From the IMG/VR virus record IMGVR_UViG_3300031759_000010: a DNA stretch of 64,000 nucleotides; one strand, 5' to 3'. Source of the stretch: a virus. Position numbers and translations under genes: made by a program. Within the stretch, counting starts at the first letter, position 1. Each line of letters opens with the position of its first letter. A model generated the notes under the pieces. The model searched no databases. It was not told the DNA's origin and saw only the letters and a list, made by a program, of their open reading frames with translations. Positions 16,157 through 63,115 of this stretch are shown one piece after another.

Positions 16157-17062
16157 CTATCCTGCCACTACTTGAAGTTTACCGCACATTACCAGAAAAC
16201 CAATCTTTTCAGCTTCATGATGAAGCTTCTTGTGCTCCGAATTTGTAACTATCTTAAAGTTCTCCACGCGGTTGTCCTGGTGATCTCCATTGATGTGATG
16301 GATATGTTCGCTAGGCTTTAGTTTTCTTCCGATATGGACCTCCATGATATACCTATGCTCTGGAATCCATTTCCCATCCTCCGCCCTAACGCACCACTCG
16401 TTACTGCTTGGCCACCACCTGCGAGATCCAATTGTTCCGCTCGAAAGGCTTGATTGGTACTTCCCTTGGCACTCCTTACCGCAGAGCATATTATTCCTCT
16501 TCCACGACTTGCTCCTGTCTTTAGGTATAGGATTCCCGCAGTATATGCACTTCTTTTCCGGGTAGGCGTCATGCCACTTTTGCTCTGCAATCCTCTTCTT
16601 CAACAGCACCGCGCACCGCACCTTACAGCACACCTTTTCCGAGGAAGGTATAACATCGAACTTATCCCCACACTCCACACACTCGCGGGTTTCAATCTTT
16701 CTCATAATCACAGAACGGCACTTTCTGCTGCATGTTTTTCTTAAGTTATCCTCACACTGGCTTATCCAAAAACTACCCCCGCACGCGAGGCACTTCTTTT
16801 CGATCTTCTTGCCGCTTCCCGGCCTGTATAGGCGACGATAATTGCGATTCGCGCAGGATTTGCTGTGATACTTCCTCCTTCCAATATGGCTCGGAACAAC
16901 GCGCATCATAACCCCGCATCCCAAGCATGGAATCTCGACACTATTTCTTGCCCTCCACCTATAAGAACACGACTTACCGCAAGTGGGGCGATCTGCATCT
17001 CTTTCGGCAACAATAAAATTGTTACCACATACCTCACAGCGTTTTTCTACCATCTTAGCCAT
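16157..17062 (-). CDS. HNH homing endonuclease with five tandem CxxC...CxxxC zinc-ribbon modules
   Basis: C-terminal HIHHINGDHQDNRVENFKIVTNSEHKKLH (HNH). N-terminal repeats CEVCG..CGKSC, CLGCG..SKSC, CLACG..CSRKC, CVECG..CKVRC, CIYCG..CGKEC. Confidence 0.8.
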   Translation of the reverse strand: MAKMVEKRCEVCGNNFIVAERDADRPTCGKSCSYRWRARNSVEIPCLGCGVMMRVVPSHIGRRKYHSKSCANRNYRRLYRPGSGKKIEKKCLACGGSFWISQCEDNLRKTCSRKCRSVIMRKIETRECVECGDKFDVIPSSEKVCCKVRCAVLLKKRIAEQKWHDAYPEKKCIYCGNPIPKDRSKSWKRNNMLCGKECQGKYQSSLSSGTIGSRRWWPSSNEWCVRAEDGKWIPEHRYIMEVHIGRKLKPSEHIHHINGDHQDNRVENFKIVTNSEHKKLHHEAEKIGFLVMCGKLQVVAG

Positions 17063-33386: not shown

Positions 33387-34739
33387 CTACCCTCTTTCAA
33401 ACGTCGCAAAGTCGGTGTTGAATTTTGTTTTCACGTTGCCCGTAAACCCAAAACGCTGCTTGGGAACCACAATCATTCCGCTGGTTGAGTGGTACCCCTT
33501 CTCTTTGTCGTACTCCCTCCAGAGAAGGGCGATACAGTGGGCGTCGTTCTCAATCTGCCCACTCTCCCTCAAGTCGCGCATGGTTGGAAAAGAATTGTCG
33601 TCGCGGCGGCGCAGTTGACTCAAAAGCATCAGATGGGCCCCCGTTCCCTTGATTAGATCCGCAAGCCTCTTGGAACACTCCGCCACCTTCAGGCGCTCAT
33701 CCTTGTTGCCGGGAACCGTAATCCTCTGAAGATAGTCCACGCCGACAAAACGAACTCCCTTGCGCTTGATGTGAAGACGGGCTGTAGCCAAAATCTCATT
33801 CAGACTCATGCCGCCGCGATCATAGATATCCAGAGGCCACTCTGCAATCTCCAAAGCCGCAGAACGAATCCTCCTCACCTGCTCCTCGGTTGCCGTCCTT
33901 GGGAACCTGACAAACCGATATGGAACCTCGGCGACAATTGACCACATCTTGCCAAGAAGCTGGCTCTTGGTCATCTCCAGTGAATAGCAAACCGAAGGAT
34001 AGCCGTTCCGGCCGGTGCGAATCAAAGCCTGTGCCAGAGCGGAACTCTTGCCAACCCCCGACTCGCCGCCAACCACCGTAACCTCTCCGGCAAACATACC
34101 CCCAGTCAACTCATCCATCTCTGGGGTCATGCCATAGGAAAGAGTTTCGTCGCTTTCCGCCTGCCGCCTGGACTCAAACTCATTCAGGGCGGCCATTGTT
34201 GCCTCAGAAACGTCCGTGCTGACACGATCAACGCTTCCGGCACCCTCAACTATCGAACCGATCTTCTCGCCCGCCCATGAGGCGATGTCGAGAGCTGGTT
34301 CCGATTGGTCCTGAGCCCGGTCCGCCATGGCACCCGACACGCGCATCAACTCGCGCAACATGGCGCGATCCTTCACGATGTCGATGTACTCCGCAATAAC
34401 CGGACGGCGCGGAAGGCCCTCTGTCAGGGATGCCAGGTACGCAACCCCGCCAATAGCATCGATCTCCTTCCTGCGAGACAGCTCATTGACCAAGGTCACA
34501 AGATCGACCGACTTCTGTCCATCCACCAAGCCAACCATTGCGTGGAAGATGCGGCGATGCGAGTCGTATGCGAAGTCGTCCGAACAAAGAACCTCAGACG
34601 CCTCCAACAAAGCATTGTTGTCCAACAACACCGCCCCGAGAATCGTCTTCTCGGCGTGTTCGTTCATGGGAAGAGACTTGTAAGAAACATCAACAATCTC
34701 CGGGGCCTCCTCGGGAACCGACCAGTCATCGTATTTCAT
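33387..34739 (-). CDS. dnaB: replicative DNA helicase DnaB
   Basis: N-terminal EKTILGAVLLDN, Walker A GGESGVGKSS, Walker B FVGVDYLQ, and C-terminal QLRRRDD...ENDAH motifs. Confidence 0.9.
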   Translation of the reverse strand: MKYDDWSVPEEAPEIVDVSYKSLPMNEHAEKTILGAVLLDNNALLEASEVLCSDDFAYDSHRRIFHAMVGLVDGQKSVDLVTLVNELSRRKEIDAIGGVAYLASLTEGLPRRPVIAEYIDIVKDRAMLRELMRVSGAMADRAQDQSEPALDIASWAGEKIGSIVEGAGSVDRVSTDVSEATMAALNEFESRRQAESDETLSYGMTPEMDELTGGMFAGEVTVVGGESGVGKSSALAQALIRTGRNGYPSVCYSLEMTKSQLLGKMWSIVAEVPYRFVRFPRTATEEQVRRIRSAALEIAEWPLDIYDRGGMSLNEILATARLHIKRKGVRFVGVDYLQRITVPGNKDERLKVAECSKRLADLIKGTGAHLMLLSQLRRRDDNSFPTMRDLRESGQIENDAHCIALLWREYDKEKGYHSTSGMIVVPKQRFGFTGNVKTKFNTDFATFERG

Positions 34740-38171: not shown

Positions 38172-38936
38172 ATGAGACTCGTATCAAAGCAGCAGTTTAA
38201 TTCCGCTCGCAGTCGCGACCTTATCGACTTACGTTGCGATTTTTGCGACAGGATTTTCTGGTTACCGAAGCACGAGGCGATGAGGAGAGCAAAACGCGGA
38301 ACAGGAAAAACGTACTGCTCTCCTCTTTGCTCAAATGATTCACAGAGGAGGAATAAGCCAAAGCCTTGCAAGCAGTGCGGAAAAGATTGCCGCAAGATTT
38401 TTTGTTCTCACAGGTGTTCTGCGTTATTCAACAACCCCCTCAAGGCTAACAAGAAGAAAAAGTGCCTTGAGTGTGGAGTAAAGCACTCGAACAAAAAATT
38501 TTGTAGCCATGGATGCAATCAGAAAAACAAAGAGAAAGCGGTGCTCGTAGAATGGCGATCCGGAGCGCGTAGTGGGTTAACAAAGAATGGCTTTCTTTGT
38601 GAAACCGTAAGACGGTACCTTCTTGGGAAATACGACAACAAGTGCTCTAGGTGTGGATGGTGCGAGGTTAACCATAAAAGTGGAAAGGTGCCGGTTCAGA
38701 TCGAGCATATCGACGGGGATTTTCGCAATTGCAGTGAAAGCAATTTGATCGTTTTGTGCCCTAATTGCCATTCTTTAACTCCGACATACATGTCGCTTAA
38801 TCGGGGCAATGGAAGAGACGTTAACGGAATGAGGCGCAAAAAGGATGCCGGAATAGCTCAACAGGAAGAGCATATCATCGGTAATGATACGACTGGGGTT
38901 CGAGGCCCCATTTCGGCTCCAAGGTTTTTAATGTAA
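38172..38936 (+). CDS. HNH homing endonuclease with three zinc-ribbon modules
   Basis: HIDGDFRNCSESNLIVLCPNCH (HNH). CDFC..CSPLC, CKQC..CSHRC, CLEC..CSHGC. The 3' end runs through tRNA-Thr(GGT). Confidence 0.8.
   Translation: MRLVSKQQFNSARSRDLIDLRCDFCDRIFWLPKHEAMRRAKRGTGKTYCSPLCSNDSQRRNKPKPCKQCGKDCRKIFCSHRCSALFNNPLKANKKKKCLECGVKHSNKKFCSHGCNQKNKEKAVLVEWRSGARSGLTKNGFLCETVRRYLLGKYDNKCSRCGWCEVNHKSGKVPVQIEHIDGDFRNCSESNLIVLCPNCHSLTPTYMSLNRGNGRDVNGMRRKKDAGIAQQEEHIIGNDTTGVRGPISAPRFLM
38847..38921 (+). tRNA. tRNA-Thr (GGT), C at position 33
   Basis: Acceptor GCCGGAA/TTTCGGC, D arm GCTC-AACAGGAA-GAGC, anticodon arm TATCA-TCGGTAA-TGATA, T loop TTCGAGG, CCA. Confidence 0.65.
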
Positions 38937-40845: not shown

Positions 40846-41152
40846 ATGTCCGGGCTGGTGTAGGCCTCCTTTCCTCCGCGCCCACCGGAGGGGACAAAGT
40901 GGGCACAAGTTTTGGAGGAACAATGATTCACGCGGAGGATGCCATGACAAGTACATAGTGAAAGGAGACTTGTCATGGGCAATGCACACGCTTCAAGGCA
41001 CCGTCGTGGGCTCGGAAAGCCATGTTCCATCGGTTGCCTTTATTGCGCGATGCGCCCCAAGGATGGGCCACCCGGGAAGCGGCGCAAAAACTACGCCAAC
41101 AAAACTTCCAGGGGCCGCCATGTTCCCCATGGGCGCAACGCAAACCGCCGCA

Positions 41153-41221
41153 AGGGTTAAGCATGTCAACGCTGTAGGGATGTGGTTTCGGACGCGGGTT
41201 CAATTCCCACCGGGTCCACCA
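41153..41221 (+). ncRNA. ssrA: tmRNA acceptor (3') piece: P2 3' strands, T arm, 3' acceptor strand, CCA
   Basis: GTTAAGCATGTCAACGCTGTAGGGATGTGGTTTCGGACGCGGGTTCAATTCCCACCGGGTCCACCA closely parallels the E. coli ssrA 3' end as I remember it. The 5' limit of the piece is not determinable by eye. Confidence 0.6.
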
Positions 41222-41293
41222 GAGAGGGTTGGAAGCTGCTTTAGGACTTACCCCCTTGGAAAAAGTGAGCGGTTAATGTCAACCCTCTCTTGT
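41222..41293 (+). other. intervening segment of the permuted tmRNA locus, closed by a perfect 10-bp stem
   Basis: GAGAGGGTTG (41222-31) pairs with CAACCCTCTC (41280-89). It starts directly after CCA and ends 4 nt before the GGGCCCG 5' end. Confidence 0.6.
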
Positions 41294-41465
41294 GGGCCCG
41301 TCACGGTTTCGACGGGATCAGGGATCTACAGTTTCATGCCGGGATTGATGCTCACCGCAACGAGAATCAAACCATAAGTGCAGCAGCATTTGCGCTCCCG
41401 GTTGCCGCCTAAACAACGGTAACCCGTGGACGGCCGGGTTCCATGTAAAAAAACACCCGGCAAGG
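41294..41465 (+). ncRNA. ssrA: tmRNA coding (5') piece: 5' acceptor strand, D-loop analogue, PK1 region, tag reading frame
   Basis: GGGCCCGTCACGGTTTCGACGGGAT...TTCATGCCGGG is the canonical tmRNA 5' domain. Tag frame 41359-41412 encodes NENQTISAAAFALPVAA then stop. The 3' limit is set arbitrarily before tRNA-Glu. Confidence 0.6.
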
Positions 41466-41469
41466 TTTT

Positions 41470-41546
41470 GGCCCTGTCTGCTAAGTGGATAGGCAACTGG
41501 ACTCTCACTCCGGAAATGACGGGTTCGAATCCCGCCAGGGCTACCA
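41470..41546 (+). tRNA. tRNA-Glu (CTC)
   Basis: Acceptor GGCCCTG/CAGGGCT (G1-U72), anticodon arm CTGGA-CTCTCAC-TCCGG, T loop TTCGAAT, CCA. Confidence 0.7.
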
Positions 41547-42196: not shown

Positions 42197-42379
42197 GTGA
42201 AGGTTGCAAGGAGTCACATCGTCGCCGCAATCGAGGTAGCTGATCAGATCAAGAACGGCAAGATTCTTTTTTATCCCAAATACGCCATCAAGGCCAAACG
42301 CTATGCCGGAAAAGACAAATCCACCGGCGAGTTTGGGTGGACGGTATCGGTTGTTCCTCTCCGGCCAGTCAAAGCATAA
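42197..42379 (+). CDS. hypothetical small protein (60 aa)
   Basis: Track ORF. Stop lies 2 nt before the GGQ-protein ATG. Confidence 0.4.
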   Translation: MKVARSHIVAAIEVADQIKNGKILFYPKYAIKAKRYAGKDKSTGEFGWTVSVVPLRPVKA

Positions 42380-42381
42380 AA

Positions 42382-42714
42382 ATGAAAACCCTCTTGTTTT
42401 CCCTTACTTCAAAAGATTTCGAGTTTCAGACTTTTTGCACTGGCGGCAACGGCGGCCAACACCGCAACGCAAAGCAAAACGGTGTGCGGTGTATCCATAC
42501 AGCCTCTGGGGCCAGGGCCGAACACCGCGACGGACGCGATCAGCGGAAGAATAAGGAAGAAGCCTTCCGCAAATGCGCCGAGACCCCTCAGTTTAAGGCT
42601 TGGCACAGGGCTGAAACTATGCGCCGCATGGGCCTCATGAAGAGCGTTGACCGGGCCGTTGATGAGGCTATGAGGCCAGAAAACATCAAGGTCGAGATTT
42701 TGAATGGGATCTAA
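42382..42714 (+). CDS. GGQ-motif release-factor-domain protein (ArfB/RF-1-domain-like peptidyl-tRNA hydrolase)
   Basis: TGGNGGQHRNAKQNGVRCIHTASG...RDQRKNKEEA matches the class I release factor PTH domain with the catalytic GGQ. Only 110 aa, so no codon-recognition domains. Confidence 0.8.
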   Translation: MKTLLFSLTSKDFEFQTFCTGGNGGQHRNAKQNGVRCIHTASGARAEHRDGRDQRKNKEEAFRKCAETPQFKAWHRAETMRRMGLMKSVDRAVDEAMRPENIKVEILNGI

Positions 42715-42738
42715 AGAGGACTTCGAGGAGTCTGATTG

Positions 42739-42812
42739 TGGAGCGGCCGAGGAGATTCAAACTCCCGTCATCGGATTGGAAGTCCGAGGCCCTATCATTG
42801 GACGACGGCCGC
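42739..42812 (-). tRNA. tRNA-Gly (TCC)
   Basis: Minus strand: acceptor GCGGCCG/CGGCCGC, anticodon arm TCGGA-CTTCCAA-TCCGA, T arm GGGAG-TTTGAAT-CTCCT, CCA. Confidence 0.8.
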
Positions 42813-42817
42813 AAATT

Positions 42818-42855
42818 TGGTGCCGGATGCTGGGCTTGAACCAGCTACCTCTCGC
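42818..42855 (-). tRNA. 3' half of a split tRNA gene (anticodon-stem 3' strand, variable loop, T arm, acceptor 3' strand, CCA)
   Basis: Minus strand: GCGAG-AGGTA-GCTGG-TTCAAGC-CCAGC-ATCCGGC-A-CCA. The acceptor strand is perfectly complementary to GCCGGAT at 43424-43430. Confidence 0.6.
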
Positions 42856-43320
42856 TTATATCGTATCCAATTGATCAACCGATTTTAATTCATAGTCTGA
42901 TGCCAATCTAACTCCTCGCACTTGATTGTTGGCTGACGGCTTGAATCTCAAGGCAATATCCCTTTTCAATTGTCTCAATAAATCTGGTCCGAATAGATAG
43001 AACTTCCGATCATTCGGTTCGTAAGCTACGAGTGCATCTACTTGATTTTCGTAGCTACGATGAACAACTTTTCCGTGGTCAGTTGTATTATTTACAAATG
43101 ATACCGAGAATGTCTTACCATTATTACGCCATGTTGTTTTTACCTGCACTCGTAGCAGTCGTTTTCCAGTGTCTACGATCATATCGTAGCGGTGGCGGTC
43201 TCCAAGTGGAACAGATACCGCTAATCCTTGTTCAACACACCATAGAGCAAACCTCATCTCAGATATGTCGCCTGTCTGCTTGGTGTTAATTTTTGTTGTC
43301 GCGTTAATCATCGAACTCAC
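42856..43320 (-). CDS. PD-(D/E)XK endonuclease, I-Ssp6803I-like (PDDEXK_5-like)
   Basis: GDISEMRFALWCVEQGLAVSVPLGDRHRYDMIVD...LLRVQVKTT follows the E...D...QVK pattern of that family as I remember it. Sits between the two halves of a tRNA gene. Confidence 0.55.
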   Translation of the reverse strand: MSSMINATTKINTKQTGDISEMRFALWCVEQGLAVSVPLGDRHRYDMIVDTGKRLLRVQVKTTWRNNGKTFSVSFVNNTTDHGKVVHRSYENQVDALVAYEPNDRKFYLFGPDLLRQLKRDIALRFKPSANNQVRGVRLASDYELKSVDQLDTI

Positions 43321-43395
43321 AACCTTTCCATTATCGATGGAATCCTATTCCAAATTTATCTACGCTACAATCATATAACACATTACTCCTGTATA

Positions 43396-43430
43396 CCGAA
43401 CGCTCTAAGCCATCGGTGAGCTAATCCGGC
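43396..43430 (-). tRNA. 5' half of the same split tRNA gene (acceptor 5' strand, D arm, anticodon-stem 5' strand)
   Basis: Minus strand: GCCGGAT-TA-GCTC-ACCGATGGCTTA-GAGC-G-TTCGG, followed by TATACAGG... and the endonuclease ORF. Confidence 0.6.
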
Positions 43431-43435
43431 AAACC

Positions 43436-43511
43436 TGGTGCGGAGTGAGGGACTCGAACCCCCGACGACCTGCTTGTAAGGCAGACGATCTAGCCGCTGA
43501 TCAAACTCCGC
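43436..43511 (-). tRNA. tRNA-Val (TAC)
   Basis: Acceptor GCGGAGT/ACTCCGC, D arm GATC-AGCGGCTA-GATC, anticodon arm TCTGC-CTTACAA-GCAGG, T loop TTCGAGT, CCA. Confidence 0.8.
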
Positions 43512-43584
43512 AAAATACCCTAAACAACTTATAACTTAGGCGTATACATCAAAAAACCGGAACACGCCCAAGATACAAAGCAAC

Positions 43585-43661
43585 TGGAGCTGCCGACAGG
43601 ACTCGAACCTGCCTTATCCACCTACGGTGTTCGCCTTCGGAGGGCGACCCGGTACGGCAGC
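43585..43661 (-). tRNA. atypical tRNA-like gene, Arg (CCG)-type anticodon hairpin, no recognisable D arm
   Basis: Acceptor GCTGCCG/CGGCAGC, T arm GCAGG-TTCGAGT-CCTGT and CCA are canonical. The only good internal hairpin, TCGCC-CTCCGAA-GGCGA, starts 7 nt after the acceptor and is followed by an 18-nt segment containing the mini-hairpin CACC-GTA-GGTG. Confidence 0.4.
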
Positions 43662-43665
43662 AAAC

Positions 43666-43742
43666 TGGTGGTCGCAGGAAGAGTCGAACTTCCGGCCTAC
43701 GGTTTAGGAAACCATCGCTCTATCCGTCTGAGCTATGCGACC
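43666..43742 (-). tRNA. tRNA-Arg (CCT)
   Basis: Acceptor GGTCGCA/TGCGACC, D arm GCTC-AGACGGATA-GAGC, anticodon arm ATGGT-TTCCTAA-ACCGT, T arm GGAAG-TTCGACT-CTTCC, CCA. Confidence 0.8.
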
Positions 43743-43759
43743 AAATCTGGTGATCCTAA

Positions 43760-43834
43760 TGGAAGACCTATCCCGGATCGAACGGGAATCATTCGCTTAG
43801 AAGGCGAGGCTCTATCCCTTTGAGCTATAGGTCC
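43760..43834 (-). tRNA. tRNA-Arg (TCT)
   Basis: Acceptor GGACCTA/TAGGTCT, D arm GCTC-AAAGGGATA-GAGC, anticodon hairpin TCGC-CTTCTAA-GCGA (4 bp plus a C-A mismatch), T arm TCCCG-TTCGATC-CGGGA, CCA. Confidence 0.65.
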
Positions 43835-43836
43835 AT

Positions 43837-43915
43837 TGGTGAGACGGGTGAGATTTGAACTCACGTTTATGACGACTTAAAAGGTCGTTGCCGAACCAGA
43901 CTAGGCGACCGTCTC
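43837..43915 (-). tRNA. tRNA-Lys (TTT)
   Basis: Acceptor GAGACGG/CCGTCTC, anticodon arm ACGAC-CTTTTAA-GTCGT, T arm GTGAG-TTCAAAT-CTCAC, CCA. Confidence 0.75.
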
Positions 43916-44500
43916 TCGTAAATTCTTGGTATATTCTCTGTTTGCTCTTGTACAACCATCGCAATGCCGAAGACCGCGACGAGCTTCTGCTAAGTATCCC
44001 GACCTTGTTCCGTGCTGAATTTCAAGCAGTTTTCTCGGACCACCGTTGTTCTTCTTTTGATATTTACGAACGCAATCCTTGCAGTCAGATGCTAAACCAT
44101 CCCAACGGCTTTTGTTCTTGCTGAACATCGCAACTGGCTGAGGCTTTTTGCAGGTTGAGCATCGTTTTGTCCCGTCTTCTTGGAGAGCGTTTCTGTACCT
44201 GCCGGATTGTTCCGCGCAATTCTGCATCTGTGAAACAATCCTTATGTTTCCAAGTTCGTAGTGACCAGAATCGCCAATCCTTGCCGCGTTAGGTGTAACG
44301 TCAGGATTCTCTTTTTGAAACTTCTCGTATTCAGGGATGGCCCATTTCAGCCATTCATCCCACGTCATTCGTAATTCCACATTCGCGTAAGAGGGGTTCT
44401 TCCCATCTTTATTAAGACACCTTTTCAACATCCCATAATACGCTGCTTTTGCTCGATAAAGAGGGGTGCGATGAATCTCCGGGCTTTTGTAGGCAATCAT
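43901..44500 (-). CDS. putative HNH_3-type homing endonuclease
   Basis: GDSGHYELGNIRIVSQMQN resembles the HNH_3 core. Cys pairs CSTC, CKDC, CDGC. The last 15 nt overlap the 5' end of tRNA-Lys(TTT). Confidence 0.5.
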   Translation of the reverse strand: MIAYKSPEIHRTPLYRAKAAYYGMLKRCLNKDGKNPSYANVELRMTWDEWLKWAIPEYEKFQKENPDVTPNAARIGDSGHYELGNIRIVSQMQNCAEQSGRYRNALQEDGTKRCSTCKKPQPVAMFSKNKSRWDGLASDCKDCVRKYQKKNNGGPRKLLEIQHGTRSGYLAEARRGLRHCDGCTRANREYTKNLRETVA

Positions 44501-45327: not shown

Positions 45328-45414
45328 TGGCGGTAGCGGCGTGAGTCCAACACGCAACGGCTTTCACCGTGTCCGCTTTCGAGGCGGGTGGGCTTGGCAA
45401 TGCCCAACGCTACC
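45328..45414 (-). tRNA. tRNA-Ser (CGA), type II
   Basis: Acceptor GGTAGCG/CGCTACC, G73, D stem GGGC/GCCC, anticodon loop CTCGAAA, variable arm ACGG-TGAAAG-CCGT, T arm GCGTG-TTGGACT-CACGC, CCA. Confidence 0.75.
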
Positions 45415-62240: not shown

Positions 62241-62589
62241 CGGGGTTTGTGACGGTGTTAAGCCATGCGCTGTAGGGGTAAATGGTTCCGCATACGCACG
62301 AGCAAAGCGGACAGCATATCAGGGCCACCGAGGAGGAGAGGGTGTAATCGTACTCTCTCACAACCAGGGGCTCATCGAAGAAATGAGAGCAGACTCCCGA
62401 CATCACGCCGGTCTGCTCTGTCACCGGCTGGCCACTGAAAGGGGCAATGGTGCTGGAGGGATTAACAATCTGCGCTGGAAGGACAGGGGTATTGGCCCCG
62501 CCTGGCTGGGTGAATCCCCGGCCGACGCCCGGGAGCCCAAAACCACCGCCGGGATAGTACATGGTCCCCAATTTCCAGCCATTCACCAT
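62227..62589 (-). CDS. hypothetical Gly/Pro/Cys-containing protein
   Basis: Track ORF, opposite strand. Confidence 0.35.
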   Translation of the reverse strand: MVNGWKLGTMYYPGGGFGLPGVGRGFTQPGGANTPVLPAQIVNPSSTIAPFSGQPVTEQTGVMSGVCSHFFDEPLVVREYDYTLSSSVALICCPLCSCVCGTIYPYSAWLNTVTNPVTFP

Positions 62590-62686
62590 GCAACCATTGT
62601 ACCTCCATACTGGTTACCAAAGGCATCTTGTGGTTTCTTGGAAAACAAACTATCCTCGGTTTCGACCAGGGAGACGTTTTTGGAGG

Positions 62687-63115
62687 ATGAAGATGGCAAC
62701 CGTTAGGACGCGCATCCACGGCATCTACTCCGCGCTAAAACGGCGGGTTGGCGCGAAGCATTGGCAGTCCGGCAAGCGCAAGGGCCAGTTGCGGCAAGTA
62801 GGCGAAGAACTACCCTTCAGCGAAGCTGAGTTGTTCCGCTGGTATGACGCACAGACATTGACCCGTTGCCCGTTCTGCCTTCAGCCCATCGACGCCCTGA
62901 GCGCATCCATCGACCACATGACGCCCCTGAGCCGTGGCGGGTCGCTTGGCTTGGACAATCTGGAGTGCATCTGCGAACTGTGCAATCGCATCAAGGGCGG
63001 ATTGACTCGAAGCGAGTTTGCCGAACTGAGCGAATGGATGATGCGGATTGAACCGCTGGCCCATGCCGATCTGGTGCGCCGTCTCCGGGCCGCGCCGATG
63101 TGGAGGCACAGATGA
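62687..63115 (+). CDS. HNH endonuclease
   Basis: CPFCLQPI...IDHMTPLSRGGSLGLDNLECICELCNRIK. Track ORF trimmed to Met 43. Confidence 0.75.
   Translation: MKMATVRTRIHGIYSALKRRVGAKHWQSGKRKGQLRQVGEELPFSEAELFRWYDAQTLTRCPFCLQPIDALSASIDHMTPLSRGGSLGLDNLECICELCNRIKGGLTRSEFAELSEWMMRIEPLAHADLVRRLRAAPMWRHR

Follow-up and report, generated by a model that had tools for sequence, protein, structure and literature searches.

A phage tRNA gene probably split by a mobile cassette that carries a passenger tRNA gene and a PD-(D/E)XK homing endonuclease gene

The PD-(D/E)XK homing endonuclease I-Ssp6803I is encoded in the group I intron that interrupts the transfer RNA (tRNA) gene for tRNA-fMet in the cyanobacterium Synechocystis PCC 6803, and its cleavage leaves 3-nucleotide (nt) 3' overhangs. 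Free-standing homing endonucleases are known from the tRNA clusters of phages, examples being SegB of phage T4 and the HNH endonucleases of the tRNA region of phage T5. The locus analyzed here lies at positions 42,818 to 43,430, on the minus strand, of a 64,000-nt stretch of the IMG/VR virus record IMGVR_UViG_3300031759_000010 (the whole stretch is called the window throughout), where two halves of a tRNA gene, hereafter X, enclose an open reading frame (ORF) for an endonuclease of the I-Ssp6803I family. Given the anatomy of this unit, the absence of a ribozyme match and of a junction hairpin, the intact passenger tRNA gene in the corresponding unit of a sister lineage, and the presence of an identical cassette in different phage backgrounds, it appears moderately probable that a DNA-mobile cassette, consisting of a passenger tRNA-Ile gene and the homing endonuclease gene, split a tRNA gene of the CAU type and that the passenger has since decayed in this phage. 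A 2012 review describes the homologues of I-Ssp6803I as mainly cyanobacterial (PMC3384342), a 2014 review notes that, numerous as the tRNA genes of phages are, every phage intron known at the time lies in a protein-coding gene (PMC3984707), and SegB is mentioned in PMC13096335.

The locus resembles the Synechocystis intron in that an endonuclease of the same family is associated with a tRNA, probably of the CAU type, that is interrupted in its anticodon region; unlike that intron, it has no ribozyme, contains a second tRNA gene, repeats 12-17 nt of the interrupted tRNA in both of its parts, and yields no functional tRNA when the parts are rebuilt in silico. As with SegB and the T5 HNH endonucleases, an endonuclease gene resides in a phage tRNA array and appears to spread with flanking tRNA markers, an identical block being found in diverged backgrounds; the differences are that the endonuclease is of the PD-(D/E)XK rather than the GIY-YIG or HNH type and that the cassette of the window splits a tRNA gene. 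The bulge-helix-bulge introns of archaea and eukaryotes and the split tRNAs of Nanoarchaeum likewise combine ribozyme-free interruption with complementary acceptor strands, but the window derives from a tailed phage with bacterial-type features, and no bulge-helix-bulge, complementary leader pairing, splicing endonuclease gene or ligase gene was detected in it.

The acceptor strands of the X halves are complementary at 7 of 7 positions, the D stem, T arm, T loop, discriminator base and CCA are canonical, and the tertiary and conserved bases are all present (U8, A14, the D-loop GG, A21, the TTCAAGC T loop, G53-C61 and ACCA). The halves are separated by 540 nt (43395-42856, minus strand) that hold the ORF on the same strand, and X lies in register within a run of 12 tRNA genes on the minus strand. 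Because the same halves, with matching acceptor and D stems, flank the orthologous ORF in a second lineage, with T-stem pair 50:64 changed from C-G to U-A, their pairing goes beyond chance. X is not called by ARAGORN with or without the intron search, and neither half matches the Rfam tRNA model at E<=10. The first-pass annotation, made from the letters of the window, had described clean 5' and 3' tRNA halves with a 7-base-pair (bp) acceptor, a description that is borne out by direct reading and by the second lineage; it had also remarked that an intact copy of X elsewhere would argue against a single split gene, and no intact paralogue of X was found within the window.

To assign X to a tRNA type, it was compared with 697 tRNAs with the anticodon loops masked. 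An intact phage tRNA(CAU) in L014 ranks far ahead of all others; it shares with X the acceptor stem, D stem, G26, T stem, A73 and CCA, and CAU tRNAs dominate the 40 best matches. The 3' copies keep TATAA (window) or CATAG (second lineage) exactly at the would-be positions 34-38, so that the stop codon of the ORF sits on U36-A37-A38. A comparable arrangement is found in Vibrio phage phi-pp2, where the coding sequence of a homologous ORF continues across the 5' half of an intact tRNA-Met and has the TAA of CTCATAA as its stop codon, and is shared by locus L036. As judged from these similarities, X is most likely of the CAU (Met/Ile2) type, its identity being uncertain, and the guess of an Ile/Met-type tRNA in the first-pass annotation was a reasonable one. 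The G1-C72 and C2-G71 pairs, together with the stem TTCG./GCGA.., had raised Thr(UGU) or Ile(GAU) as candidates; these were set aside given the best overall match to a tRNA(CAU) and the CATA or TATA kept at positions 34-37, with a Thr type as a possibility that is not favoured.

The ORF is a full-length member of PF11645 (PDDEXK_5; E 1.1e-31, 110.1 bits at a cut-off of 26.1, profile positions 1-137 of 138) and matches the I-Ssp6803I structure 2OST (E 1.6e-11). The catalytic stretch RYDMIVD...LLRVQVK aligns with SYDLVFD...LLKVQVK of 2OST, D43, Q56 and K58 are invariant in a 12-sequence family alignment, and the conserved N-terminus M-x-x-x-TTKINTKQTGDISE aligns with that of I-Ssp6803I. With these matches and the retained YD...VQVK, the earlier assignment of the ORF as I-Ssp6803I-like and PD-(D/E)XK proved right at the level of the protein family. 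The ORF could also start at GTG 43320, giving 154 codons, but ATG 43311, 11 nt after GGAAAGG, is the likelier start; the stop codon TAA (42858-42856) abuts the GCGAG of the X 3' part. Between this gene and its orthologue in the second lineage, the identities at the three codon positions are 0.80, 0.86 and 0.40 (39.5% for third positions), with synonymous sites near saturation, a pattern which indicates purifying selection; with the catalytic D...QxK residues kept as well, the intact gene is probably functional. No promoter-like site was found between tRNA-Val and the ORF, which is therefore probably expressed from the transcript of the array.

The contents of the insert became apparent from comparison with the second lineage. 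Lineage A consists of the window, an identical contig (L011) and L022, which differs by one indel elsewhere; lineage B consists of the seven JGI contigs L004-L010 together with L023 and L024, with an endonuclease 76% identical to that of the window. No close relatives of the window were found among GenBank phages or in IMG/VR. The unit of lineage B starts with GCCGGAT TA GCTC ATCGTCTGGTTCA GAGC G TTCGC AGTGAAA GCGAA AGGTG, that is, positions 1-48 of X, followed by a 9-nt spacer, a complete tRNA-Ile(GAU), the ORF, the stop codon TAG and the X 3' part (AGGCG GTTGG TTCAAGC CCAAC ATCCGGC A CCA). The inner tRNA-Ile(GAU) of lineage B is called by ARAGORN under default settings and, with 59.7 bits in the Rfam search, is the top-scoring tRNA on its contig; the ATG of the endonuclease gene sits in its T-loop. 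Gap-free alignment of the window with L004 and L024 allowed the parts of the window insert to be assigned (Table 1). The segment that in lineage B forms a perfect hairpin plus variable loop (AGTGAAA GCGAA AGGTG) is decayed in the window. The inner tRNA-Ile of the window retains an intact anticodon arm (TTCCA TCGATAA TGGAA) but pairs at only 2/4 positions of the D stem, 3/5 of the T stem and 6/7 of the acceptor, with G53-C61 lost; ARAGORN calls it only under relaxed settings (-ps80 for the window, -ps90 for the excised stretch), and it has no Rfam match at E<=10. A 35-nt block that spans the inner anticodon hairpin and the translation start is fully conserved although the inner tRNA is dead in the window.

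Table 1. Features of the split tRNA unit and its immediate neighbours in the window
Feature	Position	Strand	Remarks
Flanking tRNA-Val(tac)	43436..43511	minus	5 nt upstream of X
Outer tRNA X, 5' part	43396..43430	minus	GCCGGAT TA GCTC ACCGATGGCTTA GAGC G TTCGG, read directly: acceptor 5' strand GCCGGAT, U8 A9, D arm GCTC/GAGC (12-nt loop), G26, anticodon-stem 5' strand TTCGG
Decayed copy of X positions 32-48	43379..43395	minus	TATACAG GAGTA ATGTG; 9/17 identical to lineage B
Spacer TTATATGAT	43370..43378	minus	TGATATGAT in lineage B
Decayed inner tRNA-Ile(GAU)	43295..43369	minus	Overlaps ORF start
35-nt block ATTCCATCGATAATGGAAAGGTTGTGAGTTCGATG	43309..43343	minus	100% identical between lineages A and B; inner anticodon hairpin, Shine-Dalgarno-like GGAAAGG, ATG
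Homing endonuclease gene, PF11645 / I-Ssp6803I family	42856..43311	minus	151 amino acids from ATG 43311
Outer tRNA X, 3' part	42818..42857	minus	A37 A38 are the last two bases of the ORF stop codon; from 42855 to 42818 GCGAG (39-43) AGGTA GCTGG TTCAAGC CCAGC ATCCGGC A CCA: variable loop AGGTA, T arm GCTGG TTCAAGC CCAGC, acceptor 3' strand ATCCGGC, A73, CCA
Flanking tRNA-Gly(tcc)	42739..42812	minus	5 nt downstream of X

The two parts of X overlap, the 5' part reaching nt 48 and the 3' part beginning at about nt 34-37. After the stop codon, the window keeps AA-GCGAG-AGGTA (positions 37-48), and lineage B has lost positions 39-43; in lineage B, the split falls after the variable loop and not in the anticodon loop. 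As far as can be read from these alignments, the insert is a cassette of tRNA-Ile(GAU) and an endonuclease gene and does not have the anatomy of an intron. The reservations that the first-pass annotation attached to an intron were correct, namely the approximately 75 nt before the ORF, the stop codon that abuts the 3' stem, the lack of an obtainable loop with U33, and the occurrence of TATA on both sides. Its count of non-coding nucleotides stands, and these can now be identified as the decayed copy of positions 32-48, the spacer and most of the decayed tRNA-Ile. The interruption of the tRNA in the anticodon region likewise stands, but not in the form of a simple split of the anticodon loop, given the overlapping parts and the position of the split in lineage B. 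As a side observation on the passenger, C33 replaces the near-universal U33 in endonuclease-linked tRNA-Ile(GAU) genes of lineage B (L004 5889-5965, TCGATAA) and of Pectobacterium phage My1 (L001 1896-1968, CCGATAA); these may be cleavage-resistant alleles.

Within lineage B, at least three backgrounds share, with 100% identity, a block that begins about 170-350 nt before X and reaches the end of X, covering tRNA-Val/Thr, the X 5' part, tRNA-Ile, the endonuclease gene and the X 3' part. The alignment of their flanks falls to about 30-60% upstream and 32-90% downstream, and the endonuclease is identical residue for residue in at least three backgrounds. With the start of X set to 0 and a unit length of 609 nt, L005 and L004 are 100% identical from -173 to about +547, except for tRNA-Thr (-113 to -1) with 87-92%, and align at about 30-57% outside; L005 and L010 are 100% identical from -233 to +600 and diverged outside; and L005 and L006 are 100% identical throughout the upstream region and diverge directly after the CCA of X, with 63% identity in tRNA-Gly. 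On the right, the breakpoint falls in the X 3' part or where that part ends. Because the cassette is 100% identical in phages with widely differing flanks, it appears to spread as DNA, and the pattern is, by all appearances, the signature of recent horizontal spread by recombination.

Genes of the PF11645 family recur in the tRNA loci of other phages. All seven homologues examined from GenBank phages lie in or beside tRNA genes (My1, phi-pp2, FKP10, Sf-FR1, J2-1, EFP01 and the haloarchaeal virus HSTV-4); in HSTV-4 (L003 1435-2013), a complete tRNA-Asn is followed by the ORF and then by a 29-nt repeat of the tRNA 3' end. A family-level scan of IMG/VR yielded 78 phage loci, 72 of which have ordinary tRNA calls within 1.5 kb. 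The ORF abuts or overlaps an intact tRNA in 19 of the 78, and in 48 the intron mode of ARAGORN places the ORF in the intron of a called tRNA. Junctions could be mapped for 33 loci (28 distinct), and 20 distinct loci give canonical loops when joined, namely CTGTTAA (Asn), CTGATAA (Ile), C/TTTGTAA (Thr), CTCATAA (CAU) and CTTTTAA (Lys), with the junction invariably between U36 and A37. In the 18 strictly mapped loci, the inserts measure 453-483 nt, with about 13-35 nt before and 9-15 nt after the ORF, which leaves a ribozyme no space (examples are L040 1432-1977, L058 1456-2013 and L066 1450-1977, among IMG/VR loci numbered L033-L110); a cultured example, with the insert in a tRNA-Asn (GUU), is Enterococcus phage EFP01 (KY549443 ~105242-105777; L026 1141-1676).

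The 20 loci share a junction helix that joins nt 34-36 and the three bases at the start of the insert to the six bases at its end. This helix covaries: 95% of the cells are paired, both sides have changed at 5/6 pairs, and the score is 0.97 vs 0.21 for shuffles, none of 500 of which reaches it, while slid partners are paired at 33-47%. Each insert ends in a base complementary to nt 34 (C, A or G) and therefore lacks an omega-G; the group I models gave no match in 20 loci of this kind. A second helix of 12-16 bp closes the ORF, and the junction duplex of L040 has an energy of -31.5 vs -16.3 +/- 2.9 kcal/mol for shuffles. The window shares with these inserts (for example, that of EFP01) the endonuclease family, a right junction between nt 36 and 37 of an ANN-decoding tRNA (AA GCGAG following the junction) and an ORF that nearly fills the insert. 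Unlike them, it has no junction helix and no canonical joined loop, the left side TTCGG TATAC... giving A33, and it contains a nested tRNA remnant; lineage B carries X up to nt 48 on the left side and also has no junction helix. As a separate observation, the Asn- and Lys-type inserts (L035, L039-L054, L064, L069 and L092) have, between the junction helix and the ORF-closing helix, an internal loop with a CUGA(C) 5' strand opposite a CUGAUG(U) 3' strand. A kink-turn (box D / box C) reading of this loop was rejected as a resemblance only, given that the bulge has 2 nt and not 3 and that the loop is absent from the Thr- and CAU-type inserts.

Nested units comparable to that of the window were found at two further loci. 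In L036 (1354-1973), a complete tRNA-Asn and then the ORF stand between positions 1-46 of an old tRNA-Asn and its later part, which resumes at about nt 30 and runs to nt 76; in L080 (1434-2009), a tRNA-Pro(UGG) is interrupted between nt 36 and 37 by the ORF and a complete tRNA-Asn. Judging by the arrangement of these loci, nested cassettes of an endonuclease gene and a passenger tRNA inside tRNA genes recur independently. The idea that the cassette supplies the interrupted tRNA anew fits L036 (Asn in Asn) but was rejected for the window (Ile(GAU) in a CAU-like tRNA). The closest viral relative of the window endonuclease is encoded in L033, where an acceptor strand and D arm are followed by a ribosome-binding site, the ORF, its stop codon, and a T arm and acceptor strand, with no anticodon arm in between. 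In relatives of L033 and L036, the endonuclease genes are free-standing beside intact tRNAs. Two side observations concern the surroundings of PF11645 genes. A ROOL RNA (matches with 265 and 137 bits, one of them in Enterococcus phage EFP01) and a GOLLD-like match adjoin endonuclease-bearing tRNA arrays (L064 2439-3025, L056 3105-3408 and L063 943-1300). In Streptomyces genomes and actinophage-like contigs (L111 926-1423, L113 92-588 and L044 ~1419-1914), a tRNA with a CTTATAA loop (Ile UAU) directly precedes the GTG start of a PF11645 gene, and these genes adjoin transposase genes.

Several explanations of the window locus have to be weighed. The first-pass annotation had left two options, an unusually compact group I intron with a ribozyme that overlaps the ORF, as in the cyanobacterial tRNA-fMet intron that encodes I-Ssp6803I, and an endonuclease insertion that destroyed the tRNA, possibly one of the Ile/Met type. 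The former, which we regard as highly improbable, would fit the affiliation of the endonuclease with the I-Ssp6803I family and the NCBI label of its relatives ('group I intron-associated PD-(D/E)XK endonuclease'); moreover, the longer tRNA-Lys inserts of L089 and L101 (602 and 697 nt), which lack the junction helix, allow a delimitation in which the 5' exon has a final U and the insert a final G, and they could be true introns of group I. At the window locus, a permissive Rfam scan of 42500-43800 on both strands gave no match to Intron_gpI, the model that the first-pass annotation had proposed to run, or to any other ribozyme at E<=10, only the three neighbouring tRNAs and chance-level matches, and no ribozyme matched at E<=1 in lineage B or in 23 other loci. 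A group I ribozyme fold needs roughly 200 nt or more. The room in the window amounts to 75 nt (to GTG 43320) or 84 nt (to ATG 43311) before the ORF and 0 nt after it, the sequence before the ORF is a decayed tRNA plus a duplicated tRNA segment, and the ORF is collinear with free-standing homologues. The X 3' part is preceded by ...GATATAA, with an A and not omega-G in the last position, and no internal guide pairing was found at the locus. The insert ends pair no better than shuffles (-13.5 vs -14.5 +/- 2.7 kcal/mol); a candidate pairing of these ends (TTATAT/ATATAA with ATTG/CAAT) was discarded, given that its register shifts in lineage B and its energy does not exceed that of shuffles. The TATA on both sides, to which the first-pass annotation had drawn attention, is present but looks like chance: it was rejected as a target-site duplication or splice ambiguity, being absent from lineage B and giving a 5-nt loop when used for joining. 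Removal of the insert by protein instead, by an endonuclease of the host, of the phage or encoded in the insert, followed by an RNA ligase, would yield a functional tRNA without a ribozyme, and we consider it unlikely, though less so than the compact intron. Its appeal derives from the other phages, where related genes lie inside tRNA genes in 48/78 loci and the canonical joined loops and covarying junction helix of the 20 distinct loci argue for removal at the RNA level, and from the right junction of the window, GATAT/AA (the slash marks the junction), which resembles the GATATG/AA ends of the CAU-type inserts. Neither the window nor lineage B has the junction helix, however. ARAGORN at the default threshold accepted none of seven in-silico joins, of which five concern the window and two lineage B; the joined loops have A33 (window) or G33 (lineage B), none has U33, pair 31:39 of the window is G.G, and a 7-nt loop closed by a 5-bp stem is not obtained with any join. 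The position of the join would, furthermore, need to differ between lineages A and B, and RNase P together with 3'-end processing would cut out the nested tRNA. No RNA ligase, RtcB or polynucleotide kinase domain was detected among the 51 window ORFs scanned (most of them >150 amino acids), and no bulge-helix-bulge was recognized either by stable junction pairing (duplex energy) or by eye, no dedicated search tool having been run. The intron reading fails for the window locus. The other option, insertion with destruction of the tRNA, gains support from the closest intact match to X, a tRNA(CAU), and from the lack of a usable join, with the amendment that the inserted unit is not the endonuclease gene alone but also carries tRNA-Ile(GAU).

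The favoured explanation can be elaborated as follows. The X halves would be the remains of one tRNA gene that received a mobile cassette near its anticodon and variable region, with the passenger tRNA-Ile(GAU) followed by a free-standing endonuclease gene whose start codon lies in the T-loop of the passenger and whose stop codon falls on X 36-38. In a co-infection, the endonuclease presumably cleaves the uninterrupted tRNA gene of the other phage, and the cassette would be copied into the break during repair, for which the tRNA halves and adjacent tRNA genes would provide the homology, so that homing would be the means of spread; the outer tRNA would have lost its function. Three points weigh against this account. 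The X halves are 83% (5' part) and 88% (3' part) identical between lineages A and B, with all stem positions identical or compensated (50:64) and differences confined to the D loop, variable loop and nt 31, whereas the five or six neighbouring tRNAs shared by the lineages are only 52-74% identical; a dead remnant should not outdo functional neighbours in conservation while the synonymous sites of the ORF are near saturation, and the conservation requires that the halves either are renewed time and again as the cassette homes into functional alleles or have a function of their own. No uninterrupted allele of X, the search for which the first-pass annotation had suggested in related phages, was found by exact-match scans of IMG/VR, JGI metagenomes and GTDB genomes, which is weak evidence given that the metagenome set missed known carriers; only tRNAs with the same acceptor stem turned up, and the JGI metagenome scan gave split copies only. 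Finally, the 12-17 nt overlap of the X parts is not accounted for by simple homing. A function of the halves would follow if the tRNA-like ends work in RNA. The X parts would then pair into a module without an anticodon arm, a natural tRNA-scaffolded messenger RNA (mRNA) of a topology like that of transfer-messenger RNA (tmRNA), and RNase P and 3'-end enzymes would excise the unit from the polycistronic transcript, the paired ends protecting the endonuclease mRNA; the insertion would have originated as under the favoured explanation, the difference being that the split tRNA is now functional. This explanation, which we hold to be possible but not likely, is consistent with the conservation just described: the acceptor, D and T stems are kept while the anticodon region varies and its topology differs between lineages, and the halves are more conserved than the neighbouring tRNAs, with ORF third positions only 39.5% identical. 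It also fits the retention of the encoded ACCA and of the 5-nt spacers to both neighbours, the probability of 0.8-1.0 with which the acceptor helix closes in the thermodynamic folds of both lineages (for the window, of the whole 613-nt unit), the probable expression of the ORF from the array transcript, and the tRNA-like ends around the ORF of L033. On the other hand, it draws on two lineages and one compensatory pair, sub-lineage B2 (L004 and L008) has lost the 3' acceptor strand by rearrangement with the ORF and 5' part unchanged, maturation of the inner tRNA-Ile in lineage B would cut the 5' part off the mRNA, which would also lose its ATG, and the acceptor of L033 pairs at only 6/7 positions. 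The parallel with tmRNA and with engineered tRNA scaffolds is one of topology only, as the ends may form an acceptor and T-arm module that encloses an ORF; in the window, the ORF has its own start and encodes a nuclease, and alanylation, ribosome rescue and a tag reading frame are without support. More speculatively, and with a similarly low probability, PF11645 genes might define a ribozyme-less class of tRNA intervening sequences, located between nt 36 and 37, closed by a covarying hairpin in which the anticodon is paired with the last three bases, and removed by proteins or in some new way; the window would then be a derived member in which decoding has been abandoned, the ends form an mRNA scaffold and the cassette shuttles a passenger tRNA.

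The surroundings of the locus include other unusual elements. An HNH-type endonuclease-like ORF is found at each of 38172-38936 (+), 43901-44500 (-), 16157-17062 (-) and 62561-63115 (+), two of them inside the tRNA array, and that at 43901-44500 overlaps the 5' end of tRNA-Lys(ttt); in L004, a second PF11645 gene abuts tRNA-Lys(ttt). The tRNA array is heavily colonised by endonuclease genes. At 43588-43662 (-) lies a tRNA-Arg(CCG)-like element whose acceptor stem, T arm and anticodon arm (loop CTCCGAA) are present, whereas the D arm is missing and the variable region is long; it has a weak tRNA-Sec match (23 bits) and is not called by ARAGORN, and lineage B has a called tRNA-Arg(ccg) at this position. 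A permuted tmRNA (tag AAAFALPVAA) is predicted at 41129-41503 (+) by ARAGORN alone and overlaps tRNA-Glu(ctc) at 41470-41546, and an ORF of the RF-1 / peptidyl-tRNA hydrolase type (PF00472, E 4.6e-11) at 42337-42714 (+) adjoins the array. A 15-nt indel at 45367-45381, in the variable arm of tRNA-Ser(cga), is the sole difference between the window and L022 over 2.7 kb. The phage backbone (22282-24245 (+), 24893-26716 (-) and 13134-16146 (-)) encodes an SU10-type portal, adaptor proteins, a B12-binding radical SAM enzyme and a methyltransferase; a DnaB-type helicase is encoded at 33387-34739, and no RNA ligase or repair genes were seen.

We did not find endonuclease-bearing inserts in phage tRNA genes described in the literature, in a search that was thin on subscription journals, so that an earlier description is possible; the broad association of the PF11645 family with phage tRNA genes, most commonly as compact hairpin-type inserts between nt 36 and 37, is apparently undescribed. 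A family known from one cyanobacterial group I intron is a common resident of phage tRNA arrays. Standard tRNA finders overlook genes such as X, and phage tRNA repertoires are consequently under-counted. If the tRNAs with hairpin-type inserts are matured, bacteria or phages own a way of splicing tRNA that does not involve group I introns. The conservation of the X halves raises the possibility of a natural tRNA-scaffolded mRNA. Given that the cassette appears to destroy one tRNA gene and deliver another, homing endonucleases would be active remodellers of phage tRNA repertoires.

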